The translations under genes and the position numbers were made by a program. A stretch of 64,000 nt of DNA from Octopus sinensis. Its lineage: Eukaryota. Numbering within the stretch: position 1 is the first letter of the stretch; every line of letters starts with the position of its first letter. Where the stretch lies: the NCBI RefSeq assembly GCF_006345805.1, contig NC_043014.1, positions 37,696,001 to 37,760,000 on the forward strand, written 5' to 3'. The notes beneath the pieces are model-generated. The model had not been told where the DNA came from and searched no databases. It was given only the letters and a program-made list of their open reading frames with translations. Below are positions 13,256 through 63,025 of the stretch, piece by piece.

Positions 13256-13268
13256 ATATATATATATA

Positions 13269-39075: not shown

Positions 39076-39203
39076 GATCCGTTGTGTGTTATAAGAAATT
39101 CCGTAAACGACGAGGAGTTTGTAAGCGACCGTTAAAGAGACAAGTCTATTCAACAGCCATTCAGTGCTGTAGTGATCGAGGTTCTGGTTGGACAAGGAAA
39201 GTG
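39076..39203 (+). CDS. Internal exon A of a properdin-like TB+TSR secreted protein; first part of TB-like domain (xSVVCYKKFRKRRGVCKRPLKRQVYSTAIQCCSDRGSGWTRKV)
   Basis: Pyrimidine tract + ccag acceptor (AG 39074-39075), gtgagt donor at 39204; open in phase 1->0; Cys pattern C-x10-C-x14-CC; phase matches the next exon. Not in the ORF track. Confidence 0.8.
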
Positions 39204-39239
39204 GTGAGTGAGCCTTTGCTTCTAACTATCTATTAATCA

Positions 39240-39288
<49 letters not shown>

Positions 39289-39310
39289 TACTACTACTAA
39301 TAATAATAAT

Positions 39311-39861
39311 AAATGCTCTGATGCAGTACCAGGCAGTGGCTCTCATGGCTTCTGATCTTAACTGATTGGAAGTGTTATCATGTACATTGTTTTGTCTTGG
39401 TATAAAGATGGGCTAACAGCAAATATTCTGCTCAATACCACAGATTTGCTTGTCAGTTGTTTGACCTTAACCAGTTGAGCATGTCCCTTAGTGGCTGACG
39501 ATATGTGCATCTCTGACCACGAGCAGAAGTAGTGGGGAGCATCATAGCCATGTTTGAGAGGGATTCTTTGGGGTTTGAATAGTTCACCTCTGGAAACATG
39601 GTGGTTCTTTCAACATCCTTAAACAACCCTTATTCAGGGACTGTTTTGAGCGGATGGGCTACTCAACCCGAAGAAAATTCTAATGGGCCCCCCTGCAAGG
39701 TCATGTGCTGTTTATCTTGATATGAGATCACCATGTCGCGCACATATGGTTGTGATGCATGTGCCTGGTGTACCTTTATCAGACGGGTAGTCATGATGGG
39801 TATATTGGGCTTCGTAAATTTTACCCCAGTGTCACTTTGATGGCATGCACTGCTCTCTCAC
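39311..39861 (+). mobile_element. Third copy of the ~550-bp repeat in an (AAT)n tract; partial opposite-strand copy at ~34893-35030
   Basis: Similarity to 1455-1996; (TAA)n on both sides. Confidence 0.85.
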
Positions 39862-39916
<55 letters not shown>

Positions 39917-40729
39917 TAATAATAATAATAATAATGATGATAATAATAATAACGATAATATTGATGATGATAATAATAATAATAATAATAATAATATTGA
40001 TGATGGTGATTTCAAATTTTGGCATCAGACCAGCAGATTTGGGGGAAGGGTTTAAAGTCGATCACATTGATCTCAGTGTTCAAATGATACTTATTTTAGC
40101 GATCCCGAAAGGATGAAAAGCAAAGTCGACCGCGGCGGAATTTGAGCTCAGAACGCAGCGATTGAAGGAATGCCGCAAAGCATTTTTGTCCCGTGTGCTA
40201 ACGATTCTGCCAGCTCACCGCGTTAGGCGCGGTGCAAAGGGAATTGGAAACTTATTGTATACAGTGCTCAGGTACACAACAACTCATCAGAAAAGTCACC
40301 AAAACTGCATGAACATGTACATAGGTAAGCACTGGTAGTGAACAGTGAATAAGTCTTAAAAAACAAAACAACAGCAACAAAAATAATAAAAAAGACCGAG
40401 CTTTGGAGCCACAGGTGTACTGTTAGTGAATTTCAGGAAACATGATAGATTTGATGGGTGTAGTGTTTCGACAGCTACAACTGACGGCAGTAGTTTGGTA
40501 GTGCACTGGCAGAATAGTTACTGCGTTATTTATGATATATTTAATCTCATTTACGTTTGTATGAATAAACGAGTGTATCTGAAACATGTTTACTTCATGG
40601 TACCACCATAATCGATCGTGCATTTCTACTGTTTTTAGTTTTTTTTCCCGTTTTTCAGCTACTATTTTCAGAAATACTTTTTGCCCCAGCCGCCCCTCCC
40701 CTCCAATTTCTTCATTTTTCACTTTTTTC

Positions 40730-41098
40730 CGTAACTGTAACCCTAACCCTAAAACCCTAGCCCTAACCCCAAAACCAAACCCTAACCCTAAAACCCTAAA
40801 GCTAAAACCAGTACAAATGCACGAACGATGTCATAAATAACAGTGACAAACGAAAAAGACACCGCCGGTAGTTGTTGTTGACAAACAACAGCAGTAATTT
40901 TATTCAGCTGAATACGCGTCATTGATTGGTTGAAATTACTGAAATACGACAACTTTAACACGAAATAACTTCGTAAATAGAAACTTTACTAAGAGTAAAA
41001 GATGTTTTGCATGACACATTCTACTAGTGTCCGAAGTTTGAAAGTGTTTAGTTACAAAAAATTAATTTCTCGATCTGCTGTTGAAAGGGAAAAGATCC
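40730..41098. mobile_element. Half copy of the TTAGGG-carrying MITE
   Basis: (CCCTAA)-type repeats at 40738-40800 followed by one TIR ending aaagatcc. Confidence 0.8.
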
Positions 41099-41909
41099 CT
41101 GTGTCGAACAAAATACTGGGTGGCTTTTCTTCAGGTTCTTTACGTTCCGAGTTCAAATGCCACCGGTGTCGGTTTTACTTTTCATCATTTCCGGGTCCAC
41201 AAAATAAGTTCAGTCGAGCATTGGGTCGATGCAACTGACAGGTCCCTCCCACCAAAATTTTCAGGCTTTGCACTGATAGTAGAAACAATTACTTTCTTTT
41301 CTTTCTTCTTTTTTTTTTTTTGTTAGAGGCGACATGCTGGCAAAATCATTACTGCACCGAACAAAATACTTAGCCGCATTTCTATCTCTTCTTTACGATC
41401 TGAATTCAAATGCTGCAGAGGTCGATTACATTAGATAAATTAGATAAGGTAGAGGGCGGCGGGCTCGCAGAATCGTTAGCACACCGGGCGAAACACTTGG
41501 CGACATTTCGTCTGCCGTTGCGTTCTGAGTTCAAATCCCGCCGGTGTCGACTTTGTCTTTCATCCTTTGTAGAAGTATAACCAATTCATTGTACAAATTT
41601 TAATCACAAAATCTTATGTGGTCTCCAGGGTCATATGGATCCTAAGTGTTATATAGACCTCACCGCCAGAGTCATATGGGTCCCGGCTGAGAACCACTGG
41701 ACTAGATCGTGTCACCTTGTCCGATAAAAGAAAAAAGGAAGAAAAACGAAACACCTGTAAATAATTGGTGTACTTCAAAACCATGAGATTTATATATGTG
41801 TGTGTGTGTGTTACTTTTTATTATTTCTAAATTGTCGCCTGCCTTTATATTCTGAGTTCAAATTGTCGTCTGCTTTTACGTTCTGAGTTCAAATTGTCGT
41901 CTGTGTGTG

Positions 41910-41946
<37 letters not shown>

Positions 41947-42174
41947 TATTTTTTATTATTTCTAAATTGTCGTCTGCCTTTACGTTCTGAGTTCAAATTC
42001 CGCTGAGGTCGACTTTACCTTTCAACCTTTCGGGGTCGATGAAATAAAGTATCAGTTTGAACACAGGGGTCGATGAAATCGACTTAACTCCGCCACCAAA
42101 CATGCCGGCTTTGTGCCCTATAGTAGAAAGGATTGTTTGTAAACTATTCTAAAGTGATAATTATTACATTTCAG

Positions 42175-42250
42175 GATAAAGTTGGGAAGAACTCCTATCG
42201 ATGTACATCTTGCGAAATCTTGAAGAAATTTTCCCTGCCACCTGCTGATG
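42175..42250 (+). CDS. Internal exon B; end of TB-like domain plus linker (DKVGKNSYRCTSCEILKKFSLPPAD)
   Basis: tttcag acceptor (AG 42173-42174), gtaagt donor at 42251; 76 nt, phase 0->1, bridging exon A (ends phase 0) and exon C (starts phase 1); supplies the CxxC that completes the six-Cys domain. Confidence 0.8.
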
Positions 42251-42324
42251 GTAAGTTTGCTTTTTAAGTTTTTTGTTAACGTACCATATTCTCCTGGTGG
42301 ATGGGGAGAATGGTTGATAGAATA

Positions 42325-43106
42325 AAGGTAGCGAGCTGGCAGAAACGTTAGCACGCCGAGCGAAATGCTCAGCGGCATTTCATCTGCTACGTTTCACCGG
42401 CTACGTTCTGAGTTCAAATTCCGCCGAGGTCGACTTTGCCTTTCATCCTTTCGGGGTTGATTAAATAAGTACCAGTTACGCACTGGGGTCAATGTAATCG
42501 ACTTAATCTGTTTGTCTGTCCTTGTTTGTCCTCTCTGTGTTTAGCCCCTTGTGGGTAGTAAAGAAAGAGGTATTTCGTCTGCCGTTACGTTCTGAGTTCA
42601 AATTCCGCCGAGGTCAACTTTGCCTTTCATCCTTTCGGGGTCGATTAAATAAGTACCAGTAACGCACTGGGGTCGATATAATCGACTTAATCTGTTTGTC
42701 TGTCCTTGTTTGTCCTCTCTGTGTTTAGCCCCTTGTGGGTAGTAAAGAAATAGGTATTTCGTCTACCGCTACGTTCTGAGTTCAAATTCCGCCGATCTCG
42801 ACTTTTCCTTTTATCCTTTCGGGTTCAATAAATTAAGTACCAGTTACGCACTGGGGTCGATGTAATCTACTTAATCCGCTTACCTTCCTTGTTTGTCCCC
42901 TCTGTGTTTAGCCCCTTGTGGGTAGTAAAGAAATAGGTATTTCATCTGCCGTTACGTTCTGAGTTCAAATTCCGCCGATGTCGACTTTGTCTTTCATCCT
43001 TTCTGAGTCGATAAAATAAAGTACCAGCTGAGTACTGGGATCGATGTAATCGACTTAGTGCCTTCCCCGAAATTTCTGGCCTTGCGCCAAAATTTGAAAC
43101 CAATAT
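42325..43106 (+). mobile_element. SINE family B tetramer
   Basis: Full head, then units of 184 and 183 nt restarting at GGTATTTC (42569, 42753, 42936); the last unit has a different, older-type tail. Confidence 0.9.
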
Positions 43107-43987
43107 TTTGCGATGGTGGAATGGTAGAACCATTAGAAAACCGTATTAAATGCCAGGTCAATAATTAGTATAACTTCCTAGTTCAGAATCTGCAGGATAA
43201 AGTTTGTGTTCCTTTTTGGTGTCCGATGAAATATATTTGGGTTGATTGAATCATCTCACTTCTTTCCCTGCAAATAAATTTGACCTTCTACCAATGTAAG
43301 AAATTGATGTTTCGATGTTTGTAACGTCTATTCGAATTAGATTTATTTCAGTATTTTCCCAACGATGTCCTTCAACGGATATCTTGATGCGCCGCTCGTT
43401 TCTCTTTTACTTGTTTCAGTCATTTGACTACGGCCATGCTGGAGCACCGCCTTTAGTCGAGCAAATCGACCCCAGGACTTATTCTCTGTAAGCCCAGTAC
43501 TTATTCTACTTTTGCCGAACCGCTAAGTGACGGGGACATAAACACACCAGCATCGGTTGTCAAGCAATGCTAGGGGGACAAACACAGACACACAAACACG
43601 CACATATATATATATATTCATATATACGACGGGCTTCTTTTCCATGGTGATAACTCGCAGCCAGTTACACGTTTGGGCGAGAATTCGTCGTCCCTGACAT
43701 AGGAAATAAAATGAATAAAGCATTCACCGATGTTGTGAATAGTTATCCGATTGATATTTATCTGGTATGTAGTTACTGCAGTATTTGTCCCAGAGTAATA
43801 TCTCATGGATTTGATGTGTTAAAAATACAATAAATATCAAAGAGAGTCGAAAATTGATCCCATAGCGAATATCAAATTATATTTTACAAAATCCATGTTA
43901 ATGGCTGAGCAAAAACTTGTTATTCATAAATGAAGCTTGTTAACCTTGTTATTCATAATTGTATTTATACACAAGTATCATGAATGT

Positions 43988-44088
43988 AGTTTTTTATTTA
44001 CATATTTTATTTACATATTTTTTTCTTAATTTTTATTTACATATTTTTTTTCTTAATTTTTATTTACATATTTTTTTCTTAATTTTTA
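43988..44088. repeat. ~27-nt AT-rich tandem repeat (ttttatttacatattttttt(t)cttaat), 3-4 copies
   Basis: Direct reading. Confidence 0.85.
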
Positions 44089-44459
44089 AATTAAACTTAT
44101 AGTGCTTTAAAACATTCCATGCGAATTGCACCAATAATTGGCAACTCACATATGGAGTGCGCCAGTAATTTTGGTTTTAATCTCATTTCCAGTGCGTCAG
44201 GAAGTAAAAAAAAATCCAAGAGTTCTGATTTAGATAACAGGGAGTAGAAATTGACGCACCACGGTGTTGATTATGTTTTAAATTATTCTATTTGTTTTTT
44301 TTTCTTCTGCTTCTTCTCCTTTGCTTTTCTTCCCTCCTCCTCCTTCTCCTCTACCTTCTGTTCACATTCCGCCGAGGTCACATTTGCTATGCATCTTTGC
44401 AGAGTCGATAAAATAAGCACCAATTGAGCATTGGAGAAAATTGGATTATTGATGATCCT

Positions 44460-44900
44460 GTCGACTTCAGGATATCTGAAAACACACCGAAGTGATTTCA
44501 GTTTGCCTGCTTCAGATCCAGAGAACTTGTGTATAACTGTAGAAGATATGGACACAACTTCTTTTTGTTATAGGTCAGACGTTAGGCAAGCTAGATGGAC
44601 TGACTCTGTGAAAGTCAATTGTCCTGACTATAAACAGATTGCTTATTTGTCTGGGCCGTCAATATCCGATGGAATTGCAGAAATTGATGTATTTTATTCC
44701 AGTTTTCTCCATCAGCCGCAGTTTTGTGCTAAAGCTCATCTCTCCAGATGATTTGTCAATCTGTTTGTTGACAATGTCAGTATATTTTTTCTTCTGGACG
44801 TCTACCCTCCTTTCCTCCCTCTTTCCAAGCACACAGGCTCCTGTTAAATGGCCATACCATCTCAGTTTTCTTTCTTTTCTTCACTGATGTTACAAGGTTT
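44460..44900 (-). pseudogene. Decayed RTE-like LINE fragment
   Basis: Minus strand KLRWYGHL...GRRP motif near 44795-44870. Confidence 0.55.
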
Positions 44901-45029
44901 TCACAGATACCAGCGTGATACTGTGTAGTTTGGCATAAGACAAATTACTGTACCAACAAAAAGATTCGAGCCATCAATCCCTCATCGGTTAGTAGTTTCG
45001 TAGATTTATCGACTGAGCCAGTGACGGCA

Positions 45030-45384
45030 GTAACGTTAGCACGCCGGGCGAAATGCTTAGGTCGACTTTGCCTTTCATCCTTCCGGGGTCGATTAAATAA
45101 GTACCAGTTACGCACTGGGGTCGATGTAATCGACTTAATCCGTTTGTCTGTCCTTGTTTGTCCTCTCTGTGTTTAGCATATTGTGGGTAGTAAAGAAATA
45201 GGTATTTCGTCTGCCGTTACGTTCTGAGTTCAAATTCCGCCGAGGTCGACTTTGCCTTTCATCCTTCCGGGGTCGATTAAATAAGTACCAGTTACGCACT
45301 GGGGTCGATGTAATCAACTTAATCCATTTGTCTGTCCTTGTTTGTCTCCTCTGTGTTTAGCCCCTTGTGGGCAATAAAGAAATA
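45030..45384 (+). mobile_element. SINE family B dimer
   Basis: Two units joined at aaagaaata|ggtatttcg (45201). Confidence 0.85.
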
Positions 45385-46743
45385 TGAGAATAAGCCTCAC
45401 CTGCAATCCAATGGAATCTGCATCATCTAGAAGCTGTAATTGATTCAGCACTCAGAAGGAAGCATGTAAACGATCAAGCATGTTTCTTAGCTCGTCGAAA
45501 ATTCAAGAAACGCATCTCAGTTAAGTCATTAATACAAACATTTAAACTATTATAATTGTTCAGTGCTTCCCTCTATCCTTGTGTAGGAGTGGCCGTGTGA
45601 TAAGAAGCTTGCTTACCAACCACATGGTTCCGGGTTCAGTCCCACTGCGTGGCACCCTGGCAAGTGTCTTCTACTATGGCCTCGGGCCGACCAAAGCCTT
45701 GTGAGTGGATGTGGTTGACGGAAACTGAAAGAAGCCTGTCGTGTGTATCTGTGTTTGTCCCCCCCCCACATCGCTTGACAACCGATTCTGATGTGTTTAC
45801 GTCCCCGTAACTTAGCGGTTCGGCAAAAAAGACCGATAGAGTGGGTGTTGGGCTTACAAAGAATAGGTACTGGGGTCGATTTGCTCGACTAAAGGCGGTG
45901 CTCCAGCATGGCCGCAGTCAAATGACTGAAACAAGTAAAAGAGTATACACGCGCGCGAGGACACACACACACACACAAGTGTATGCGTGTGTGTGTGTGT
46001 GTGTTTGTGTGTAAATCATACGTGTCATTCGTAAGCCGTGATTACGACTTGATAACATGATGTACCATGTTTTCGCTAATAGTTTTAGGTGCCCGTGTTG
46101 TCACGAGCCGTTATAAACACCGTCTCGATCCTCCTACTCTGTGGTCTAGCAAGGATATGACAACTTGGAGGAAAGAGATGAACCGCATCAACATTTTCAT
46201 CTGAGTAGGCTAGGGCAACGTGAAATGAAGACCCATTACTGAAGGACACTACACGCAGTCTTGTCCATATATCGAACGCACAACCTTATCCGCGTATGGC
46301 CAACACCTTAACCACTAAGCCATGCGCCCTCACACACAAATATTTATACATATTTCATTCTTTACTTGTTTCAGTCATTGGACTGCGGCCATACTAGGGC
46401 ACGGCCTTAAAGAGTTCTAGTCGAACGAATCGACCCCAAAACTTAATTTTCTTAAAGCTTGGTACTAATTATATGGGTCTCTAATGCCGAACTACTAAGT
46501 TACAGGAACATGAACAAACCAACACCGGTGGTGGTGGTGGTGGGTAAAACAACCACAAATACACTCATATATAGATATATACATATATATATATATTTAC
46601 AACAGGCTTCTTTCAGTTTCCGTCTACCAAATCCACTCACAAGGCTTTGGCTGGCCCGTGACTATTGTAGAATATACTCACCTAAAGATTCAACGCAGTG
46701 GGACTGAACTCGGAACCATTTGATTGTGAAGCAAACTTCTTAC

Positions 46744-46976
46744 ATATTTCTTTATTACCCACAAGGGGCTAAACACAGAGGGGACAAACAAGGACAGACA
46801 TAGGTATTAAGTCGATTACATCGACCCCAGTGCGTAACTGGTACTTAATTTATCGACCCCGAAAGGATGAAAGGCAAAGTCGATCTCGGCGGAATTCGTA
46901 CTCACAACGTAACGCAGACGAAATACCGCTAAGCATTTCGCCCGGCGTCCTAACGTTTCTACCAGCTCGCCGCCTT
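46744..46976 (-). mobile_element. SINE family B monomer inserted into the head of a family-A SINE
   Basis: 20-bp TSD ttgtgaagcaaacttcttac (46724-46743, 46980-46999). Confidence 0.9.
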
Positions 46977-47111
46977 TGTTTGTGAAGCAAACTTCTTACC
47001 GTGTATATATACATTGTTGTATTACACCTGTATATTTATTTTTATTACCGTTCTTTAAACGATGAGCATTTACTTAATATTGTTTGTTTCCCGTATCTTT
47101 TCTTGTTCTAG

Positions 47112-47270
47112 CTGTCAAGCCTACCCTTGCCCCCTGGGGAGAATGGACTGAGTGTACAGTGACTTGTGGTGCCGGGTGGCGGTCGAAGTACCGACAGTGT
47201 CCAACATGCAGGCCCGATGATTACAGAAACCGGCTCTTCCAGCCTTGCATGATCAGAAGTTACTGTCCAG
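47112..47270 (+). CDS. Exon C; thrombospondin type-1 repeat 1 (AVKPTLAPWGEWTECTVTCGAGWRSKYRQCPTCRPDDYRNRLFQPCMIRSYCP)
   Basis: ttctag acceptor, gtaaga donor at 47271; 159 nt, phase 1->1; WxxWxxCxxTCGxG motif, six Cys. Confidence 0.93.
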
Positions 47271-47871
47271 GTAAGATGCAAATTGCACAGGGGTTTTGTT
47301 TTTAACGTTTTTATTGTTTAGGAAAATGAATGCGGCGAGTTGGCAGAAACGTTATACACACACACACACACACACACACACAGATATATATATACATGTG
47401 TGTGTTCGTCACGTTGTTGAATGGCAGGTGGAGGAGGGGGAGGAGAACAAGACGCAGAAGAAAAAGAAAACCTTGCATCTATTAACAGCCAATGAAACTT
47501 TCGTCTAAGTTATAAGTTTAAAAAACTTGTAAGAATGTAAATAGAAGAGCAGAAAGAAAAGTCAGAAAGCAATAAATAACGAAAGAAAGAATCCGTTTTA
47601 ACGTATCTTCAAGTTAATGAGTCTTGCAAACCCAAACATTTGCACAAGAATTTTGAAAATGGTCCAAGCCAACGTGGGAGTAGCTACACAGTCAGTAAAC
47701 CTGCTAAAAAATACCAACCAGATCACCCCCAATCCACAATATCAAAGCAGTTACAACAATAGCGTAAGTCAGGCGGGTGAGTCCACCCCTAGCGGCCCTT
47801 TTATTTAAGGGTGATACTTTTGAGTCCGCTGCATAAGGAGTGACTGCGAGGTTGGAAACCTCATAGTAGTG

Positions 47872-47930
<59 letters not shown>

Positions 47931-47949
47931 AGTAGTAGTAGTAGTAGTA

Positions 47950-49056
47950 AGAAGAAAAATAATCTCTGTGTTAGACCGAAAAGAGAAAGGGGAGCTTATA
48001 AGCGAACAAAAAATACAGGGCGCTGAAAAAGGAAGTATAATATTGAAAGAAAGGGCCTGAAAGTAGTAATGGAGGAACTGAAACAGCGCCTCGTTGCAAA
48101 GAAAGCAAAGATAGTAAAATACGACCAAAGTATGAAGTGTTACCACCAGAATAGGTTATTCAGAGTGGATCAGAAGAGATTCTATAAAGAAATATATGGA
48201 GAGCATACAGATGAAAAGTTGATACGAAATAATATTGAAAGTCAAAGACAAGGAGCACAAGAAGGATGCTGAATGGTTGGAAGAACTGAAACAAACAGTA
48301 GTCTGTCCAAAACAGACAGAACTAGTCATTTCAGTTAGGGAAGTGAAGGAAGTCAGCAAGAAAAATGAGCAACTGGAAGGCCCCGGGACCAGATGGAGTT
48401 CAAGGCTACTGGATCAAAAGATTTGGTGAATGTCATGCACGAATAGCTGCGCAACTCAACACCTTGTTAAATGCCGACTAAGTAACATCAGAGTGGCTGG
48501 CATTGGGTAGGATAGTACAGTGCCTGAAGAATATCGAAAAAGGCAATACGGTAGACAATTACAGGCCGATATCCTGTTTGCCACTTATGTGGAAATTATT
48601 GACTGGGATACTCGCAGAGTCAATGTACGAACATCTGGAAAAAAATGGAGTCCTACCACATGAGCAGAAGGGTTGCAAGCGTAAGTGCAGAGGTACCAAG
48701 GATCAATTCCTGATAGACAAAACTGTACTAAGAGACTGCCAGAGGAGGAAAAGTAACTTAGCCATGTTATGATTGGACTAAGAAGCAGTGGTCGATAAAA
48801 AAAAAGGTAGCAGTAGTACCAGTAATTGTCGGAGCCCTGGGAACAGAGAGCAAAAATATCGAGAAATATGCGGAACAAATAGGGGCTACACTAAGGGTGG
48901 AGCACTTGCAGAAAATAGCACTGCTTGGAACCGCTCGAACACTTCGAAAGGTGCTCGAAAAATAAGAGGTGTTACTTTAGTTCACTGGTAGTGAACAGCT
49001 GGCACCGTTGCGCATCTCCAGTGTTAGAAGCTGTTAAAAGGCAATGATAATAATAA
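47950..49056 (+). mobile_element. Internally deleted Dong/R4-clade (RLE-type) non-LTR retrotransposon
   Basis: EELKQRL..K..KI.KY...[63 protein letters not shown], then a jump to VVVPVIVGALG...LQKIALLGTARTLRKVL; ends in TAA repeats. Confidence 0.9.
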
Positions 49057-49564
49057 CAATTCTTTGTAATTTTGGCACAAGGCCAATAATTTTTGAGGGT
49101 GAGCGTAATCGACGGGTACTTTATTTCATTTAACCTAAAAGGATGAAAAGCAAAATCAACTTCAGAACACTGCACGTACAGAGCCTAAAAAAATGTCGCT
49201 AAACATTTTGTCCGATGCTCTGAAAATCCAGCCAGCTCACCACTTTCCTAAGTAAATAGTCATAATAATAATAAAGACACTCTATTAGGTTAGTGTTTCT
49301 ACTAGTCTATGCCAACTAATATACGATTTAGTGTGTGCTTAGCAATTAGTTCCCCAACACTTCATTAAGTAATGCAAAAAAAAAAAAAGAACTAAAACAA
49401 ACAGTATCTTGGTAAGAAACCTCAAATAAGGCTTCCAGAGTTGTCTCCCGTACTTGCTAATGAAAATAGAAAATATGAATTGTTATCTTTAAAAAACTGA
49501 ACTCTTTGCTTGATTTCGACCATTAGATTGCGGGCATGCTGGGACATCGACTTAAGAGAAAAAA

Positions 49565-49595
<31 letters not shown>

Positions 49596-49751
49596 AGGGA
49601 AACGAACTGACAGCAGTAATCAATTCAGCTACAAAAATATATTCATATAAATGAAAAATGTACGCTGACAAAGATGGAGGAAACTGGTGCCTAAAACCAG
49701 TACCTTAGACTACTCAGCCACGTCACTGCCCGCTTGGCTTGCCTTTTTTTC

Positions 49752-49805
<54 letters not shown>

Positions 49806-50438
49806 ATGTGTGTGTGGTGTGTGTGTGTGTGTGTGTGTGAGCTTGTGCGTTGGAGAGTGACATTAACAAAAACACACAACCAGGTATGAAACAAAGGAAA
49901 ACTCGAAATTCGACGAACAGGTGATGGTCTGCTTCAGTATCATTGTCGTCGTCGTCATCATCACCATCATCACCATCATGATTGTCATCATCATCATTGT
50001 CGTCGTCCTCATCATCATCGTTTTATCGTGCACATTGCCATGCTCCCATGGGTCGTACGGAATTTGTTGAGGTGCATATCCCCAGCCGGATGCACCTCTT
50101 GTCATCAACCCTCACCTATGTCAAAGCAAAGTAATATTTCTCCATGAGCAAATATTTTCTCACAGGAAAATGGAAAAGAAGAGCATCGCTTGCATAACGG
50201 TGACACTCATTTACAGCTCTCACGCACACATTAACATACATGCATACATACATACTCTTTTACTTGTTTCAGTCATTTGACTGCGGCCATGCTGGAGCAC
50301 CGCCTTTAGTCAAGCAAATCGACCCCAGGACTTATTCTTTGGAAGCCTAGTACTTATTCTATCGGTCTCTTTTGCCGAACCGCTAAGTTACGGGGAGGTA
50401 AACACACCAGCATCGGTTGTCAAGTGATGTTGAGGGGA

Positions 50439-50492
<54 letters not shown>

Positions 50493-51299: not shown

Positions 51300-51990
51300 A
51301 TGCACCAGGTAAATGCTGACAGCATGACTGCTCATCATTGCTCTGTGAACACTACAAACGCTGTAAGACGGAAGATGGAGAGCTGCAACGGAGACTACGA
51401 AGTCGTGGCCAGCAGGAAGGAACACAACAGGCGTTCTGACTACATCTGCACGCCGGACTTCACCCCAAAGTCTTTGAACTGGGCCTTTGGCTCAATTCGG
51501 ACGGCTATGTAAAGCTGCCAGAGACTAGTCAAACCTTGGTTAGAGAGGTTTATTGCTGGAAGGCCATATGTGTGGCAGCAGGATTTGGCTCCTAGCCATG
51601 CGTTCGGAAAGAGCCAGAAGTGGTTGTCGGAGAGTTTTTACGACTTCACCATCCACAATTTCTGGCCTTCTGATTCTCTCGATTGTAATCCCAAGGATTA
51701 TTATGTGTAGGATGTGTTTGATAACACCAACCGCTCTGCATGCGACATCAAGGCCGTGCTGGTAGCTAGGATCAAGGACATGTTTAAAGATCTTTCCAGT
51801 GAGAAACGCACTATGTCAGGTCCCAGAGCCTTCTTAAGCCATGGTAGAAGCTGTAGGTGGCAACTTTGAGTAGCCTGTTATATCTCAGCCATAATTTACT
51901 CGATATTTTTTGAATTTTTAAAGTACTTTTATTTTTGGATCGGACGTTGTATTTTCTTTCTTTTTATGCAAGCTGTCAAATTTAGCCTGA
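51300..51990 (+). pseudogene. Decayed Tc1/mariner-superfamily transposase, DD37D (maT-like) spacing
   Basis: RPYVWQQDLAPSH...FWPSDSLDCNPKDYYV: 37 residues between the QQD aspartate and the NPKD aspartate; stops, frameshifts and an internal deletion. Confidence 0.8.
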
Positions 51991-52072
51991 ACAAATGTGT
52001 ATACATACATACATACATACATACATACATACATACATACATACATACATAAGTACATACATACCTACCTAC

Positions 52073-52122
<50 letters not shown>

Positions 52123-52182
52123 GTCTGTCTGTCTGTCTGTCTGTCTGTCCATACACATATATGTATACCCATGCGCGCGCAG

Positions 52183-52221
<39 letters not shown>

Positions 52222-52693
52222 CACACACACACACATACGCATACACGCACGCACACACACACACACGCACACGCACACACACACACGTAAGTAACTGCTC
52301 TTCTTTTAAGCCCCAGATGAACTCTGATCAAGTTTATCTATGATCGAAGACATTCCATTCGCAATCGCAACCATCGTGATCTTTCATGCCAGAATCGTCT
52401 TTCATTCTCAAAGACGACAGTTTGTGGAAATTTGGGAGATTTGGATGCTATATTTGCCAGACAAAAACATGTAATATCCAGCAGTAGCAATAGTAGTGGT
52501 AGTAGTAGTAAAAACAATAGCAGCCTGGATAAGAAGTGGAACCTATATAGATTGTACAGACGTTTACAGACGTCACGGTTCTACGATTTGCATTTGTATT
52601 GCTTTAATAATACAAGACTGTCTTTCGTCTGCTAAGTTTTGTTTGTGTAGCTGGTTCTAATTATCATTCAAGACTGATACAAATGCACCCCAT

Positions 52694-52744
<51 letters not shown>

Positions 52745-52948
52745 GTTAAAAAGCGTATAGTAAATGCACAAACAGACACAAAAGGGCAAGTTGAAAAACA
52801 TATAGTAAATAAACAGACGAACGGAAAACAGACACAAAAGGCCCCCAGCTCTTCATCAGTTATCGGCTAAAGGATCAAACGCAATTTCGTGTCTTTAACG
52901 ACAATACTGATCCCTTCTGGTGGTGAATATATAAATATATATATGTAT

Positions 52949-52981
<33 letters not shown>

Positions 52982-53061
52982 TAATTATATATATATATAT
53001 ACACACACATACATACGTACATACATACGTATATACATACATGTGTGTATGTGTGTGTGTG

Positions 53062-53113
<52 letters not shown>

Positions 53114-53635
53114 AATATTTTATTTTGATCGAGTCAGTCTCAGTTATTCTTGAGTGTCGTCGATGGGTGCACAGGGTTTTTGGGCAAGTTACAACTGAAG
53201 AAATAATCCATTATTCTAAAGGCACAAGGTCTGAAATTTTGGATAAGGGTCTTGTCAATTACAAGTTGACCTCAGTACTCAACCAGTACATATTCTATTG
53301 ACCTCGAGAGGATGAAAGTCGAACTCGGCGGAATTTGTATTTAGAACGTTTATATGCCAAGCATTTCGTCCGACGTGCCAATGATTCTGCCAGCTTGCTG
53401 CCTTGGACTAAAGAAATAATGGAACTTGTACATCCATATATAGGATTCCTGTCGTAGGGTATGACGATATATTGGAAACAAGATAAAAAGAGAATGAAGA
53501 GAAGGATAAAATGGTCATGACAAAGTGGTACAACTTTGATCGTATGTTTGCTCGGTAAAGATCCTGAGACCAACTAACAAAATGAGAAAAAAAAAGAGAA
53601 GTAGAAGTAGAAGAAGTAAGAGGAGAAGAAGAAGA

Positions 53636-53676
<41 letters not shown>

Positions 53677-54465
53677 AAGAAGAAGAAGAAGAAGAAGAAG
53701 AAGAAGAAGAAGAAGGGAAGGGAAGGGTGTGTGTTTTGAAATGGGTGAATGAAGTGGAGTGGATGGGTGTTAGAGTGATCAAAAAATTCGATGGAAAAAT
53801 TCGACGGAAAAATAATTGTCGATGAGTAGATAAAAGTGTTACATCATAGGCTATATTAAAAAAAAAAATCAATAACAGGGACATAAACAAACCAACACCA
53901 TTTGTCAAACGGTGATGGGGACAAACAGTAAAATACTCGCGTGCGGGCACACACACATACATATATACGTATATCTCACATCTTTTATCTTTTACTTCTT
54001 TCAGTCATTTGACTGAGGCCATGCTGGGGCACCGCCTTCAAAAATTTTTAGTCGAACAAATCAATCCCAGGACTTAATTTTTTTCTAAACCTGGCACTTA
54101 TTCTATCGGTGTCTTTTTACCGAACCGCTAAGTTACATGAACGTAAACACGCCAACACCGGTTGTTTAAAGGGTGGAAGAAGAAAAACACGGATACAAAA
54201 ATACACACACACACACATACGACAGGCTTTTTAAATATAAATATGTATAAATATATATTTATATACATGTATATGTGGCGATGCTCCAGTATGGTCAAAG
54301 CCTTTGAGCTGAAACATATAAAAGAAAAGAAATGTGTGTGTGCATACACGATAAGCTTCGTTCAGTTTCCGCTTACCAAATCCTCTCACAAGGCTTTGGT
54401 CGACCCGGGGATATGGTAGAAGATACTTAACCAAAGTGCCACATAGTGGGAATGAATCCGGAACC

Positions 54466-54845
54466 GGATCTTTTCCTTTTGAACGGCAGTTTTCAACACA
54501 ATTTCTAGTTAACTAAACATTTTTAAACTTCGTATACTGGTAGAATGTGTCAAAATAAAACATTTTTTCTCTTGGCTTTCTTGAGAAAATTATAATTTGT
54601 AAGTTTAACATAGTTTAATTTTTTCTCAGTTTTAGACGCAACAAATGATTTTAGCTCAATAGAGGCCATCGATTGGTTAAAATTCGAAAAATTAAACTAC
54701 GTTAAACTTACAAATTACAATTTTCTCAAGAAAGCCAAGAGAAAAAAATGTTTTATTTTGACACATTCTACCAGTATACAAAGTTTAAAAGTGTTTAGTT
54801 AACTAGAAATTGTGTTGAAAACTGCCGTTCAAAAGGAAAAGATCC
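54466..54845. mobile_element. GGATC-ended fold-back MITE (Merlin-like) inserted in a family-A SINE
   Basis: ~160-bp near-perfect inverted arms; perfect 8-bp TSD ccggaacc (54458-54465, 54846-54853). Confidence 0.93.
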
Positions 54846-55367
54846 CCGGAACCTTGTGAGTGGGAAGCAAACTTTTTACCACACAACCGAATTTTTATTT
54901 AACCAAGTTGGTCTACGCAACCAGGTTACAGAGACAGACAAGGGGTTGGAGAACGAATGATTAACAACAGGAAGTTAGACATATAGTTAAAAATAAATGA
55001 AAAATATGAAAATCGAGTGGAATAAAACAGAATAGAGTGACGGGCGTGGCCAGCACCACAAACCACGTACCAACACTGAAACTTGTTTTTTTTCCCTTTT
55101 GTTCTCACTCAAGTAGGTCTTCTTTATTTTCTTTTATATTATATTATATTATATTATGAAATTGGCCATAAATGCCTTACATAGAGGGGACAGCACAAGG
55201 TGGGGACAAAACAAAAAACCAAAACGAATGAAATTAAATGAAATTATAAAATGAAAGATGAAATGAAGTCGCTCAGCCCCCACCTCCGGGCGACTTCATT
55301 GAACCCTTTGCAACACCATTTGAATTTCCATTTGCGGCTAACTTTAGAATACACTTATTTACATTTT

Positions 55368-55654
55368 GTGGAGGCGCAATGGCCCAGTGGTTAGGGCAGC
55401 AGACTCGCGGTCGGAGAATCGCGGTTTCGATCCCCAGACCGGGCGTTTTGTGTGTTTATTGAGCGAAAACACCTAAAAGCTCCACGAGGCCCCGACAGGG
55501 GGTGATGGTGATCCCTGTTGTACTCTTTCGCCACAACATTCACTCTCTCTCTCTTCCTGTTTCTTGAGTAACGCTGGGGGTAACACATACGCCACAGAAA
55601 CCGGGAAACCGGGCCCATGAGCCTGGCTAGGCTTGAAAAGGGTGACGTTTATCG
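55368..55654 (+). mobile_element. SINE family C copy nested in the composite insertion
   Basis: 13-bp TSD ttatttacatttt (55355-55367, 55655-55667). Confidence 0.9.
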
Positions 55655-55658
55655 TTAT

Positions 55659-55943
55659 TTACATTTTACAATAATTCGTGCACATCTTTTTCAAAATATC
55701 TGCATTATATTTCTTTAAAATGTCCACATACCTTATTCTTTCCGGCATTGTGCTGGTGTCTATTTTTTTGTACCACCACTCCCAGTCATAGTTTTCCACG
55801 TACTCGTGTACCTTCCACAGGTTCTCCTTGTCCATTAGCACGCAATGATCGTCCTCAGGCAAACCCAATACATTCACTATATCAACCTTGACCATTCCGT
55901 CCCACGAATTTACTTTGTTAATCCAATTCCTCAATCTGTCCAT
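55659..55943 (-). CDS. Orphan 94-aa ORF within the retroposed insertion; possibly a retroelement ORF1 fragment
   Basis: ATG-initiated, non-repetitive, protein-like composition (MDRLRNWINKVNSWDG...YDWEWWYKK...); no domain recognised. Confidence 0.35.
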   Translation of the reverse strand: MDRLRNWINKVNSWDGMVKVDIVNVLGLPEDDHCVLMDKENLWKVHEYVENYDWEWWYKKIDTSTMPERIRYVDILKKYNADILKKMCTNYCKM

Positions 55944-56879
55944 TGTTCATTAATATAAGTTTTTCATTGCAGGGTGAGGGTGGGTGGCTTTGAGGCTCCT
56001 GTGTGTTTGCAATTTTTTTTGTCAGACTGGGCATGAGGAGGGTTGGTATCTGTAGGGAGTGGTTTGAGTAGAGTGCGTGTGGGTGAGGGCCTGGTGGGTG
56101 TGGGCTGGTTGTCATTTTATACCTATTTCTTTATTACCCACAAGGGGCTAAACATAGAGGGGACAAACATAGGTATTAAGTCGATTACATCGACCCCAGC
56201 GCGTAACTGGAACTTAATTTATCGACCCCGAAAGGATGAAAGGCAAAGTCGACCTCGGCGGAATTTGAACTCATAACGTTACGGCAGCCGAAATACCGCT
56301 AAGCATTTCGCCCGACGTGCTAACGATTCTGCCAGCTCGCCGCCTTACCGTGTGTCAAGTAGGTCTTCTTACCACACAACGATGATTGCGCCGGTAGTAG
56401 AAAAGGTGGGGGTGGAATTTTAGAAGCTGAGGTGGTCATTAAGAGAAATGGTCAGTAATTCAAGAGTATGTTGGTGGCAACTATAGTAAATAGTGATGTT
56501 CTTTTATTCTTTTATATGTCTCAGCCCTAACCTGTGACCATACTGGGGCACCGCATATATAATCGTATTTTATTTATTTCTTTAATATTTTTATATTCTT
56601 ATCAAGATTACCAACGCTCTATTTTCCTCACTTATCTTTTAACTTTTACTTGTTTCAGTCAGAGACTGCGGCCATACTGGGGCATCACTTTGAGGAATTT
56701 TCAGTCGAATGAATCAACCCCAGAACTTCTTTTCTTTCTTTTATTTTTTAAACCTGGTACTTACTCTATCGGGGTGTTTTGCCAAACCGCTAAGTTACGG
56801 AGACGTAAAAACACCAGCACCCGGTTGTCAAGTGGCGGTAGTGGTGAACAAACACAGGCACAAAGACACACGCATTTAC

Positions 56880-56913
<34 letters not shown>

Positions 56914-57211
56914 GATGAGCTTCTTTCAGTTTCCGCCTACAAAATGCACGCACAAGGCTTTGGTCGACCCGAAGCTATATTAGAAGACACTCGCCCAAGA
57001 TGCCACGTAGTGGGACTGAACCCGCAACCATGTGGTTGGGAAGAAATCTTCTTACCACACAGCCACGTCTGCATGTCTGCACCTATAGTTTATTTCTTAT
57101 TTTATTTTATTTTATTTCATTTCATTTCATTCTGATTTTGTCACAAATACTTTATATTTTAGTGGTATGGATTGTTGAAATGAAATCGATAAGAACTGCA
57201 ACGAGCTATAT

Positions 57212-58110
57212 ATCATCATCATCATCATCATCATCATCATTTAACGTCCGCTTTCCATGCTAGCATGGGTTGGACGGTTCAACTGGGGTCTGGGGAGCCC
57301 GAAAGCTGCACCAGTCCAGTCAGATCTGGCAGTGTTTTACAGCTGGATGCCCTTCCTAAGCCAACCACTCCGAGAGTGTAGTGGGTGATTTTATGTGCCA
57401 CCGACACAGGTGCCAACGAGGCTGGCAGACGGCCACGCTCGGATGGTGTTTTTTATGTGCCACCGACACAGGGTGCCGGAGGACGGCTGGCAGACGGCAC
57501 GCTCGGATGGTGTTTTTTATGTGCCACCGACACAGGTGCCAGACGAGGCTGGCAGACGGCCACGCTCTGGATGGTGTTTTTTATGTGCCACCGACACAGG
57601 TGCCAGATGAGGCTGGCAAACGGCCACGATCGGATGGTGCTTGTTACGTGCCCACAGCACGGAGGCCAGTCGATGCGGTACTGGCTACGGCCACGTTCGG
57701 ATGGTTTTCTTATGTGCCACGTGCCACCGGCACTGGTACCACAAAAATACAAATTCCATTGATGTTCATCTATTTTGATTTGTTTTGATTTGATTTTCAC
57801 TTGCCTCAACAGGTCTTCACAAGTGTCACAAGAAGGAAGGATGCACAGGTGGACTGACTACGTCCAGTAGGGCCATGGGTTATGGCCTGACTAGTCTTGC
57901 CGGGTCTTCGGATGGTGTTTTTTATGTGCCACCGACACAGGTGCTAGATGAGGCTGGTGAACGACCACGATCGGATGGTGTTTGTCATGTGCCCACCGCA
58001 CTGACTACGGCACTGATGGATTTCTTGTGTGCCACAGGCACTGGTACCACAAGATACAAATTCCATTGATGTTCATCTATTTTGTCTATTTTGATTTGAT
58101 TTTCACTTGC
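57212..58110 (-). mobile_element. RTE-type 3' UTR element with (GAT)n tail and internal ~60-nt GC-rich tandem repeats
   Basis: Tail end matches 6770-6890 (tttaacgtccgctttccatgctagcatgggtt..acggtt); repeated unit ggatggtgttttttatgtgccaccgacacaggtgcc...ggccacgctc; second block at 57908-58110. Confidence 0.8.
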
Positions 58111-58114
58111 CTAT

Positions 58115-58173
<59 letters not shown>

Positions 58174-58184
58174 TATATATATAT

Positions 58185-58355
58185 AAAGGCAAGTTTACGA
58201 AAATAAACAAAAGACGAAGGTGTACAAACAAATGTATTAGTATAGCGCTCAGGAATAGAAAAAGACTTTTACGTTTCGAGCCTACGCTCTTCCACAGAAA
58301 GATACACAGAAAAAAACAAGGAGAGAAAAAAATTGCGTGTAGTAGCTAACGATCT
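58185..58355 (-). mobile_element. Diverged solo Penelope terminal repeat; hammerhead-like motif at 58266-58301
   Basis: Similar to 9890-10085; minus strand CUUU-CUGUGGA-A-GAGC(GUAG)GCUC-GAAAC-GUA-AAAG; in (TA)n. Confidence 0.8.
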
Positions 58356-58580
58356 ATCTATATATATATAATTTTGATTTGAGAAGCGTCGAATGTATAT
58401 CGTACTGTACAGACGAGAAGGTGAAAACCGCAGGAAGATTAAGTATTATTTTCCGTCTTAAAAGGGTAATAATACCCAATTTGTTTTGCTGTTTTCACGG
58501 CTATAATGCGTGCGAAATATTACCTTCTTTTCTATACACACACACACATATATATATATATATATCCCTTTCTTTTGCAG

Positions 58581-58751
58581 TGGATGGCAATTGGGGGCCC
58601 TGGTATCAGTGGCATCCGTGTACTAAGTCATGCGGTGGAGGCCGCCGCTCTCGAACTCGGGCTTGTATCTATCCACCGCCGGCAAACGATGGTAAAGATT
58701 GCGTCGGTAGCAGCGTAGAGGAAGCCGCATGCAATACGAAACCGTGTCCAG
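58581..58751 (+). CDS. Exon D; thrombospondin type-1 repeat 2 (VDGNWGPWYQWHPCTKSCGGGRRSRTRACIYPPPANDGKDCVGSSVEEAACNTKPCP)
   Basis: ttttgcag acceptor, gtaagt donor at 58752; 171 nt, phase 1->1; canonical WxxWxxW, CxxSCG and RxRxRxC motifs. Confidence 0.96.
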
Positions 58752-61188
58752 GTAAGTTGAAACTAATGATTTATTTGACTCTTTTGAGAAGGCGCGTGGC
58801 TTACTAGATAGGATATTCGGCTCACGATCATAAGGTCGGGAGTTCAATTCCCAGCGACGCGTTGTGTCCTTGAACAAGACACTTTATTCTATGTTCCTCC
58901 AGTCCACTCAGCCGACAAAAATAAGTAGTATCTGTATTTCAGAAGTTCAGCTTTGTTACATTCTGTGTCACGCTGAGTTTCCCCGAGAACTACGTTAAGG
59001 GTACGCGTGTCTGCGGAGTACTCAGCCATTTGCACGCGCTAGCTGTTCTGTTGATCGGATCAACTGGAATTCTCGTCGTCGTAACCGACGGAGTGCTAAT
59101 TATGTTGACTCTTTGGCCCAGTGTTTCCCTACATATTTCCTATTAGGCCTCACTATAACTTACCTACAAAAAAATGTACGCCCTACCAGTGATTGGAAAA
59201 AAAACCCAAACTTCATTTTTAATATTTCATAATTATATACTTTCCTTAAAGAAATATCCATAGTATAGGCGAAGGAATGGCTATGAGATAAGTAGCGTGC
59301 TTACCAGCCACATGGTTCCGGGTTCTGTCCCACTGCGTGGCACCTTGGGCAAGTGTCTTCTACTATAGCCTCGGGCCGACCAAAGCCTTGTGAATGGATT
59401 TGGCGGACGGAAACTGAACGAAGCCCGTTGTATATATGTACAAGGCCCCATACCAGGCTCCACTATAACTTACCTTCAAAAAATGTACGCTCTACCAGTG
59501 ATTGGAAAAAAAACCCCAAACTTCATTTATGTGTGCGTATATGTTTGTGTGTCTGTGTTTGTCCACCCAACATCGCTTGACAACCGATGCTGGTGTGTTT
59601 ACGTCCCCGTAACTTAGTGGTTCGGAAAAAAAGAGACAGATAGAATAAGTACTAGGCTTACAAAGAATAAGTCCTAGGGTCGATTTGCTCGACTAAAGGC
59701 GGTGCTCCAGCATAGCCGCAGTCAAATGACTGAAACAAGTAAAAGAGTAAAGAGTACTTGGGCATTAGAATAGGGCTATACTGTAGCAAACTGTCTTCAC
59801 ACAGTATACTTAGCTGGAGTGATTAGTTCAGCTAGATTGAGTATAAGTGTAGTATATTTGCTGTAACAAAAAGATTTTCACTATTCCATGTCCCACTAAA
59901 AAAAATTTTGGATTCCACTCCCCACCACAATTTTCCCAGGCCCCTCTGGTGGGGCGTATGCTCTTCGTTGGAAATTCCTGCTTTAGAGAAACAGAACGAC
60001 TCAGTGTGTACAGCTCTTCATTTCTGTTCTCGATTATAGATGCTTTCCTCCGTTTACAGACCGTGAAGTAAGAGACAAGCAGCTAACAAATGAAGACTGC
60101 AGTGAGGTTTCGACTCCCAGTACAAAACTAATTTGTTTGCCAGATATCATAACCGTTTTTTTCTTTTTAAATTTCGGTTTTGGATTTGGTTTGCAAGATT
60201 CTTTATATGAGTTCGTGTGTTGAAGCATATTCTGTTGTGTCTGGGGAGAGTCATTCTCTTTTAGTGCCTTATTATTTAACACACTTACCGCTAAAATTTC
60301 CACTTATTTCTTATTTTTATTTTCTAAAATTTTCGTTGCGTCTTGCAACCTTTTCAATAGTCAATTGCTCCTTGGAATGCCTTTAATGAGCAAACATATG
60401 ATCAGAGTTGTACCAATCATGACCACCTCGTCCTTCTTTCGAACATGGAGTAATCTTGGACTATATTATCCGAAATAAATCCCACCTTTTCATAACGATA
60501 AGGTGTAATTTGGTAGAAATTGGCTGCTGTCTTTAGTACGTAGTTGTAATGGAAAAAACAAAACAAAACAAAACAAGTAAATGTACAATATGATACATTG
60601 TTTGGCGTCGAAAAATAGAATTGTTTAGAGAATAAGCAACTCAGAGATGCCATCCAGAAGAAAACAAGTTAAGCTAGTGTTAAAATTTTAGCGTTAACAT
60701 ATTTTGATTTAGCGTTTACACATTTAATGCAAGATGCTTTAAAAAGCCAACAAGAATTATTTATGTGGCGAAGAAGGAACAAACGTATGCACACATAACA
60801 TGGCACTCTGATCTGTGCTTTCATCAACCACAATTCTAAAATATGCTTACTTACATCTAGCTTGGCATTCTATTCTTCTTTTAACCTCGAATCTGATATA
60901 TGTTCACTGAAATATAAATTGACGTTCTTATTTTGTCTGAGTGATGATTCATTACTTAGCCATTAATATCCATACTGAATCTGAAAGTATGCTACTCTAA
61001 TTTGAAGGAACATTTGTTATTGCTCAAACAAGCATTCGTGTGCAGACTCGTTTTGTATATTTATTGCATACACATAAGCACACATGCATGTATATACTTA
61101 GTTTTAAAGTGTTTTAGAAATCCTTTATAACAATATAAGTTAGAAATAAAAGAGCGAAAGTAAAACAAAAATAAATGGTTGTACTGTT

Positions 61189-61613
61189 GGATCTTTTCGG
61201 TCTGAACGGCAGTTTTTTCTAGCGGTGTCATATGAAATTGTCACCCATAATTATGACCCTAATATCGATCTATTGCATTTCAATCTGTTTTAGGGTTAGT
61301 TAGGGTTAGGGGTGGGGGGGAAGGGTATCTTTTTTCTTCACAAATGTAAATAGACCATATCTGCTTCTTAAACGAGGGATATATTCATACGGCACAGAAT
61401 TTTTTTTTTTTTACCTCAATGGACGTATTTGATTGGTTGAAATTGCAGAAATTGAAGAAAGAAATAACAAATATCTTACAAACTATAGAATTTTCTCAAT
61501 AAAGCCAAGAGAAAAAGATGTTTTATAAACACATTCTACCAGTGTACGAAGTTTAAAATTTTTTAGTTACCTAGAAATTATGTTAAAAACTGCCGTTCAA
61601 ACAGAAAAGATCC
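61189..61613. mobile_element. GGATC-ended MITE related to 54466-54845, with a short TTAGGG run
   Basis: ggatcttttcggtctgaacggcagtttt / aaaactgccgttcaaacagaaaagatcc; ttagggttagttagggttagggg at ~61290-61312. Confidence 0.85.
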
Positions 61614-62854
61614 GTAGTTTCCTTTTGTTATGATATTTCGGCTTTAAAAATAACCTTTGTCAAGAAAAAATAAAACAAGCTTTACTCTAATCTGCGGTGT
61701 ACAATATGCGCAATTAGTATTTTTAAATAACATACAAATAAATGTCTCTTTTGTTAGAAAATATACTTTTTACTCTAGGCATTAAAATCCTGTTGTACTA
61801 CAGGACCGTCTTATGAAAGATTTTTTTGGTGGAGGATAGGCAAGAAATCATCGACTATTGTCATTGATTGGGTTTCTAAACACTATAGATGTGGCAGAAG
61901 CTTTTATTTATATCCCTTAATTTTTCATTAGACTTATGGGACGGTCTGTAAGTATCTGGTTCTAAACTGAATGAGACGTCTAAAGTTAGAGTGATACACA
62001 CACACGTGCACACACACATGATGACAAGATGATTGGAGTAAGGAATTCATTTTGCTACTTCAGTTTACAATTGTTTCATCTTGGTTTAATGCAATCAATC
62101 TTGCAACATTATGTAATAATGCACGCAGTTATTTACTCTTTTACTCTGTTACTTGTTTCAGTCATTTGACTGTGGCCATGCTGGAGCACCGCCTTTAGTC
62201 GAGCACATCGACCCCAGGACTTATTCTTTGTAAGTCTACTACTTATTCTATCGGTCTCTTTTGTTGAACCGCTAAGTTACGGTGCCGTAAACACACCAGC
62301 ATCGGTTGTCAAGCGATGTTGGGAGGACAAACACAGACACACAAACATATACACACACACATATATATACATATATATATATACATATATACAACGGGCT
62401 TCGTTCAGTTTCCGTCTACCAAATCCACTCACATGTCTTTGGTTGGCCCGTGGCTATAGTAGAAGACATTTGCCCAAGGTACCACGCAGTGGGACTGAAC
62501 CCGGAAACATGTACTTACCACACAGCCACTCTACTTTCCACATTTTATTCATATATGTGTGTGTGTAGAAAGGGATCTGTGTCATAAATGGTAGCCAAAT
62601 TTCTCTGAATTGCACGCAACCATCTTAAAAAGGAACGGCACATTCAGTAATAGAGACCAGGTTACTGTATGTATCAAAATAAATAAACAAGCAAAAACCA
62701 GCTGCTTCTGTCTGGATTGCTTTTCATCATATATCTGACCTAAGGATAAAATTCATTAATTGTAGTGATGAGAAGAAAATGACATTATAATGGCATCTTT
62801 CTAATCCTTTTGTGTTTTGTTTGTGTTTTATGTTTTCTTCTTGTCATATTTCAG

Positions 62855-63025
62855 TTAATGGAAGGTGGAGTAACTGGACCCCATGGTCGACGTGTAGTGC
62901 AAGCTGTGGTGCAGGTAGTATGAAAAGGGTTCGGAAGTGCGACAATCCAGAACCTAAATACAGAGGTAGACCCTGTGGAGGTTCCAGTTATCAAGTCAAA
63001 AAATGTGTCAAGATCAAATGTCAAC
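62855..63025 (+). CDS. Exon E; thrombospondin type-1 repeat 3 (VNGRWSNWTPWSTCSASCGAGSMKRVRKCDNPEPKYRGRPCGGSSYQVKKCVKIKCQ)
   Basis: tttcag acceptor, gtaagc donor at 63026; 171 nt, phase 1->1; canonical TSR motifs. No stop codon, so the gene continues beyond the window. Confidence 0.96.

Follow-up and report, generated by a model that had tools for sequence, protein, structure and literature searches.

A probable properdin orthologue in Octopus sinensis and other lophotrochozoans that lacks the convertase-binding loops

We analysed a window of 64,000 nt of Octopus sinensis DNA (contig NC_043014.1 of assembly GCF_006345805.1, positions 37,696,001-37,760,000 of the forward strand), which contains five exons of a gene for a properdin-like protein built from a six-Cys TB domain and an array of TSRs. 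All five lie on the plus strand, and their coordinates refer to the window. Exon A (coding exon 2, 39076..39203, phase 1-0) encodes the first two thirds of the TB domain, while exon B (coding exon 3, 42175..42250, phase 0-1) supplies its end, containing the C-x2-C motif, and a Pro-rich linker. The three remaining exons, each of phase 1-1, encode one repeat apiece: exon C (coding exon 4, 47112..47270) a compact TSR1 with a C3-C4 loop of 2 residues, exon D (coding exon 5, 58581..58751) a canonical TSR2 that gave a PF00090 match in the genome search, and exon E (coding exon 6, 62855..63025) a canonical TSR3. All five have AG/GT ends, their coding sequence matches protein record P0004 exactly, and the ends and phases (1-0, 0-1, 1-1, 1-1 and 1-1) are those claimed in an earlier note on this DNA. 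That note had also recommended a search for the signal-peptide and downstream exons. The former was found 16.4 kb upstream of the window, and six more exons, encoding TSR4, TSR5, TSR6 (two exons) and the tail (two exons), within 18.7 kb past its end, with TSR6 coding sequence at 7.3 kb. The coding exons total 1479 nt, and their translation reproduces 492/492 residues of P0004. Exons A and C each had one match in the genome. The octopus gene is single-copy and spliced, with 12 coding exons.

Exons A, B and C were contiguous in single contigs of 2133, 2100 and 1861 nt from three of four runs (three studies), the status of these runs as RNA being guessed rather than on record. The B-C junction was present in all four runs and A-B in three, the fourth showing B-C only. 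For this part of the gene, then, the junctions proposed for confirmation by RNA-seq were found back to back. Junctions C-D and D-E are supported by splice signals and protein records; exon D itself was present in 20 of the 24 listed runs, of which 14 are guessed to be RNA and none is recorded as such. Chance exons are ruled out by the spliced contigs together with sequence conservation.

The encoded protein consists of a signal-peptide-like N-terminus, the six-Cys TB domain, a short Pro-rich linker, exactly six TSRs and a Ser/Thr-rich tail. The Cys spacing of the TB domain read from exons A and B, C-x10-C-x14-CC-x20-C-x2-C, reproduces the earlier pattern. The TSRs said to follow this domain directly are present, and the requested count of them gave six, but 'directly' does not hold: 17 residues separate the last TB Cys from the first-Trp position of TSR1. 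Two C-terminal isoforms are on record, one of 446 aa that ends just past TSR6 (P0001) and one of 492 aa (P0004), whose 50-residue tail is 34% Ser/Thr. Pfam detected TSR-type families alone in P0001-P0003 and no other globular domain. As the protein is complete from start to stop and short (492 aa), we rejected its reading as a fragment of hemicentin, SCO-spondin, ADAMTS or an adhesion G-protein-coupled receptor.

The locus translation was identical to the RefSeq protein XP_029647574.1, 'properdin [Octopus sinensis]', in agreement with the cephalopod source proposed earlier; the same protein (P0004) is a hypothetical protein in O. vulgaris. GAB1601890.1, 'properdin-like [Argonauta hians]', is 77% identical to P0001. 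Orthologues elsewhere carry the labels hemicentin, coadhesin or thrombospondin-1, and in the O. bimaculoides records P0005, P0006 and P0007 the gene is split in two, or labelled BAI1-like or thrombospondin-1. The expectation that automated pipelines might apply a generic TSP1 label was correct for some orthologues and wrong for the RefSeq record of the octopus protein.

To place the protein we compared a lophotrochozoan set of 21 full-length proteins, 16 of them named and 5 unnamed, with 18 fish properdins (19 for charge) and with a background of 375 TSRs from 60 proteins. Near-duplicates, the partial records P0046, P0060, P0067, P0072 and P0077, two echinoderm proteins and the fish records P0123 and P0131 were left out. 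The six-Cys TB pattern was present in 62 of 138 collected proteins; cephalopods, bivalves, gastropods and nemerteans account for the named family members. When 1.84 billion representatives were searched with a TB profile, a brachiopod (Lingula), an annelid (Lamellibrachia) and a clam (Mya) joined the family. This invertebrate profile matched 24 representatives, and among the 10 looked up the named ones were all lophotrochozoan. In a tree of 124 repeats, drawn from 8 of the 21 lophotrochozoan and 6 of the 18 fish proteins plus 40 random background repeats, lophotrochozoan repeats 2, 4, 5 and 6 each formed a well-supported clade. The TB+TSR family is conserved across Lophotrochozoa, with members in molluscs and nemerteans and in one brachiopod and one annelid. 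This need not be its full range, since the TB profile does not reach vertebrate properdin at an E value of 0.001. Echinoderm proteins with a TB domain and TSRs exist (P0122 and P0132); when sea-cucumber TB domains were used to look for more deuterostome members, 2 Apostichopus proteins alone were recovered among 241 candidates.

Some relatives depart from the common layout. Tandem TB domains occur, two in a freshwater mussel and in one unnamed record and three in a sea cucumber (P0067, P0139 and P0132). The Lingula record P0154 has 11 TSRs, TSR1-5 being present twice letter for letter; this duplication may stem from assembly or annotation. A spider protein labelled hemicentin (P0105) has six TSRs and no TB domain, and against the fish TSR5 profile its TSR5 outscores all other background repeats; it is possibly an arthropod member after loss of the TB domain.

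The octopus protein shares with vertebrate properdin (CFP; PDB 6RUS, 6S08, 7B26 and 9U62) a signal peptide, a six-Cys TB domain and six TSRs in the same order, and properdin was its top match by sequence, fold and embedding. In a PDB sequence search human properdin was the best of 38 matches (E 1.7e-56), followed by the thrombospondin-1 family (3e-36). An AlphaFold2 model of the TB domain and TSR1, made from the O. bimaculoides record P0005 (predicted local distance difference test, pLDDT, 83), returned properdin chains at Foldseek ranks 1-8, and the top 3 of 30 ESM Atlas matches to the same region were chordate properdin clusters (0.92, 0.91 and 0.89). The predicted TB part superposed on properdin residues 28-75 (48 aligned residues, root-mean-square deviation 2.2 A) with Z 6.1, a better score than the TB-type domains of fibrillin (Z 5.2) and follistatin (Z 4.9) gave. 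The N-terminal domain is thus predicted to adopt the TB fold, as the Foldseek check suggested in the earlier note was meant to establish; the Z values, all moderate and differing little, do not discriminate the family. The fold is shared with the follistatin N-terminal domain (PF21333) and fibrillin/LTBP (PF00683) at Z 4.4-5.2, with weak Pfam matches. Follistatin and fibrillin/LTBP proteins are not known to carry a TSR array. The fibrillin TB domain has eight Cys (title of 1APJ) as against six in octopus. A full-length model (pLDDT 82) was collinear with properdin, residues 25-265 aligning to 28-261 and 259-446 to 255-466; because its predicted template modelling score (pTM) was 0.30, domain packing in this monomer model is unreliable.

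Position-specific marks were found at three repeats. Compact TSR1, as in vertebrate properdin, has a C3-C4 loop of 2-5 residues in lophotrochozoans and mostly 5-8 in fish, compared with 11 in TSR2-4. The TSR5 signature, a C1-C2 loop of at least 4 residues and a C-[YFH]-x4-C end (C-Y-x4-C in both octopus and vertebrate properdin), occurred in 15/21 lophotrochozoan and 17/18 fish proteins and in 1/375 background repeats. The C-x-x-S/T-C O-fucose motif was lacking in every TSR5 (0/21 lophotrochozoan, 0/18 fish) and present in 323/375 background TSRs. The TSR6 end C-x3-P-x-C was likewise common to 17/21 lophotrochozoan and 17/18 fish proteins and found in 3/375 background repeats. Fish TSR5 and TSR6 profiles gave their top scores on lophotrochozoan TSR5 and TSR6, positional matches being confined to TSR1, 5 and 6. 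Coadhesin, hemicentin and thrombospondin-1, the source of many of the database labels, resemble the octopus protein in their high additive scores and in canonical TSR2-4, but lack the six-Cys TB domain at the start, and their repeats rarely bear the marks of TSR5 and TSR6 (1/375 and 3/375). Since TSR1, TSR5 and TSR6 bear marks common to fish properdins, common ancestry is likely, and we consider the octopus gene very probably an orthologue of vertebrate properdin. None of the outcomes that the earlier note had named as refuting a properdin homologue turned up (transcripts that skip exons A and B or place them in another gene, a fold unlike TB, or a full-length protein grouping with hemicentin, SCO-spondin, ADAMTS or adhesion receptors). 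Its TB fold, its properdin-like layout, now a TB domain plus six TSRs, and a probable lophotrochozoan homologue are supported; in the repeat tree the pairing with fish properdin is confined to TSR1 and weak.

Human properdin is reported to grip the C3bBb convertase with a thumb formed by residues 328-336 of TSR5 and with an index finger borne on a TSR6 insert of 31 residues (PMC10087229), and the exchanges R329A, R353A, Q343R and Y414D are reported to reduce its C3b binding severely (PMC6713926). The thumb loop measures 4 residues in octopus and 4-5 in 21/21 lophotrochozoan proteins, compared with 9-10 in 18/18 fish. The distance between strands B and C of TSR6 is the canonical 11 residues in 21/21 lophotrochozoan proteins versus 22-27 in 18/18 fish, and no index-finger insert was found in any of the 21 examined. 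In its place at least 20 of the 21 have two additional Cys, one in W-C-x-W and one pairing in C-x-C, which probably form a further disulfide where vertebrates carry the insert. The position of Arg353 is occupied by Pro in 21/21 lophotrochozoan proteins and by Arg in 12/18 fish. Octopus has Phe at the Gln343 and His at the Tyr414 position, as judged by eye from the PDB-search alignment; fish properdins are also variable at Gln343 and at Arg329. When TSR5-6 alone was used to search the ESM Atlas, generic TSR clusters and no properdin appeared among the matches listed. The search for the TSR5/TSR6 convertase-binding loops that the earlier note had called for thus gave a negative answer in 21/21 lophotrochozoan proteins, and with the key C3b-binding residues also not kept, its suggestion of an alternative-pathway amplifier was not upheld. 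Judged from its sequence, the octopus protein is a properdin homologue of variant structure, without the convertase site.

Features of the oligomer vertices differ as well. The TB-TSR1 linker spans 15-90 residues in lophotrochozoans versus 4 in fish, where the gap from the last TB Cys to the first-Trp position of TSR1 is constant in 18/18 proteins. The TSR1-TSR2 disulfide, present in vertebrate properdin, was found in 0/21 lophotrochozoan versus 17/18 fish proteins, and Leu or Val at the Leu275 position in 3/21 versus 17/18. Conversely, the third Trp of TSR4 is kept in 21/21 lophotrochozoan and 0/18 fish proteins. In vertebrate properdin the head-to-tail oligomers are built on TB-TSR4 and TSR1-TSR6 contacts; the TSR6 end motif is retained in lophotrochozoans. 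A vertebrate-like head-to-tail oligomer in octopus is doubtful, because the linker is long, the TSR6 insert that bends TSR5-6 is missing, and neither Leu275 nor the TSR1-2 disulfide is conserved.

A further property sets the lophotrochozoan proteins apart from vertebrate properdin, in addition to the long linker, the TSR4 Trp, the extra TSR6 Cys pair and the Ser/Thr-rich tail. The net charge of the TB domain is +9 to +19 in 21/21 lophotrochozoan proteins versus -1 to -10 in 19/19 fish, and the core of the octopus protein reaches +54. Because both loops are missing, the protein may well act as a positively charged surface binder. We place about even confidence in the reading that it is a properdin orthologue without thumb and index finger, a secreted polycation that would bind anionic surfaces instead of stabilising a convertase. 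The Lys/Arg-rich TB head would dock on lipopolysaccharide (LPS), sulfated glycans or dying cells, assisted in octopus by the very basic TSRs, and the TSR rod could bridge the bound surface to haemocytes or plasma proteins in the manner of an opsonin-like tag. The line to vertebrates would have gained its tight hold on C3bBb, and the rigid ring of head-to-tail subunits, at a later stage. LPS and negatively charged glycans are proposed ligands of human properdin (PMC10087229), and this C3b-independent activity, debated as it is, matches the mechanism proposed here. The pattern-recognition role also suggested in the earlier note is plausible.

A number of observations weigh against an orthologous surface binder. 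With regard to homology, the 124-repeat tree paired TSR1 alone with its fish counterpart, and weakly (83/70, 6/8 rows), leaving the other repeats unpaired. Positional hidden Markov model scores did not exceed background (the fish TSR5 profile scored 25.2 on TSR5, the background 95th percentile being 26.3), and when lophotrochozoan TSR5 and TSR6 were compared with the fish repeats instead, their best scores fell on TSR4 and TSR3. The marks at the repeats were picked post hoc from the viewed alignment. Sequence similarity of the TB domain is weak, with a profile-profile probability of 1.7%; the invertebrate TB profile slightly favours fibrillin (E 0.11) over properdin (E 0.39-1.4), and the TB fold Z-scores are below 8 and about 1 apart. 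With regard to function, TSRs outside octopus carry little net charge (means -0.4 to +4), the proposed mechanism is argued from charge and analogy, and even for human properdin it is contested whether patterns are recognised without C3b (PMC10087229). A C3-like gene is also present in the octopus genome, which supplies a partner for any co-evolved site.

The strongest alternative, though in our view unlikely, is that the properdin orthologue is a non-immune matricellular protein which, as part of building or repairing tissue, would bind heparan sulfate or other matrix polyanions and perhaps, through its TB/follistatin-type domain, TGF-beta-family ligands. The TB charge data also suit heparan-sulfate binding, the TB fold is common to follistatin and fibrillin, the canonical TSR2-4 have thrombospondin-1 as their nearest fold (Z 10.4-10.7), and a Ser/Thr-rich tail (34%) would fit a matrix protein. 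Nothing points directly to a matrix location, however, and a Biomphalaria gene labelled 'Properdin', which may belong to the family, is reported to rise 5-7-fold when resistant snails are exposed to schistosomes (PMC13619432).

Rather less probable is a true functional properdin, in which a co-evolved but shorter surface on TSR5-6 would stabilise a C3/Bf convertase of molluscs. TSR5 is indeed vertebrate-like in its lack of the O-fucose motif (21/21) and its widened C1-C2 loop, and is conserved across phyla. Molluscan C3 and Bf/C2 have been reported (PMC8960428), and the octopus C3-like locus, on contig C21 (25.13-25.14 Mb), has an exon that best matches vertebrate C3d (E 6.5e-10) adjoining a thioester-motif exon. 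In all, 21 thioester-domain exon matches were spread over several contigs, and a search for the NTR/C345C family returned two loci, neither tied to C3. Set against this reading are the joint absence of thumb, index finger and Arg353 in 21/21 proteins and the generic TSR clusters, with no properdin, among the listed matches to TSR5-6. Convergence, in which protostomes would have combined a TB domain with a TSR array independently, draws on the repeat tree, the weak TB similarity, the different linker and the non-positional best profile matches of TSR2-4, but is very improbable, as an N-terminal six-Cys TB domain, six repeats and marks at repeats 1, 5 and 6 must all coincide, and TB+TSR proteins are also found in echinoderms (P0122 and P0132).

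Returning to a properdin orthologue that binds anionic surfaces, we tentatively suggest, with somewhat less confidence than in the reading itself, that properdin is older than the protostome-deuterostome split and arose as TB+6xTSR; lophotrochozoans would retain the ancestral polycationic pattern binder, and the thumb and index finger would have been grafted on later, toward vertebrates. The octopus protein may then reveal what properdin did before vertebrates. It is debated whether properdin is itself a pattern-recognition molecule or a convertase stabiliser alone (PMC10087229), and a natural homologue that has the scaffold without the convertase loops lets the two activities be tested separately. 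A loop-less homologue also dates the origin of complement amplification, and mollusc immunology gains one identifiable gene, now spread over hemicentin, coadhesin and thrombospondin labels. RefSeq already lists the octopus protein as 'properdin', as a database name only. We found no account of a protostome TB+TSR properdin, its missing loops or its range in the literature, although subscription papers and supplements may cover it. A sea-star transcript has been called properdin by similarity. A functional properdin has reportedly been described in amphioxus.

Two repetitive features lie upstream of exon A. A fragmented retroelement occupies 10789-13323 on the minus strand, in the first intron, and includes a frame of 460 aa that matches RVT_1 weakly (E 0.022); the frames beside it gave no Pfam match and, by motif, look like a Penelope-type GIY-YIG endonuclease. 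A long intronic tandem array extends over 7131-8802, and because a seven-residue repeat reads in several of its frames, the unit is probably 21 bp.

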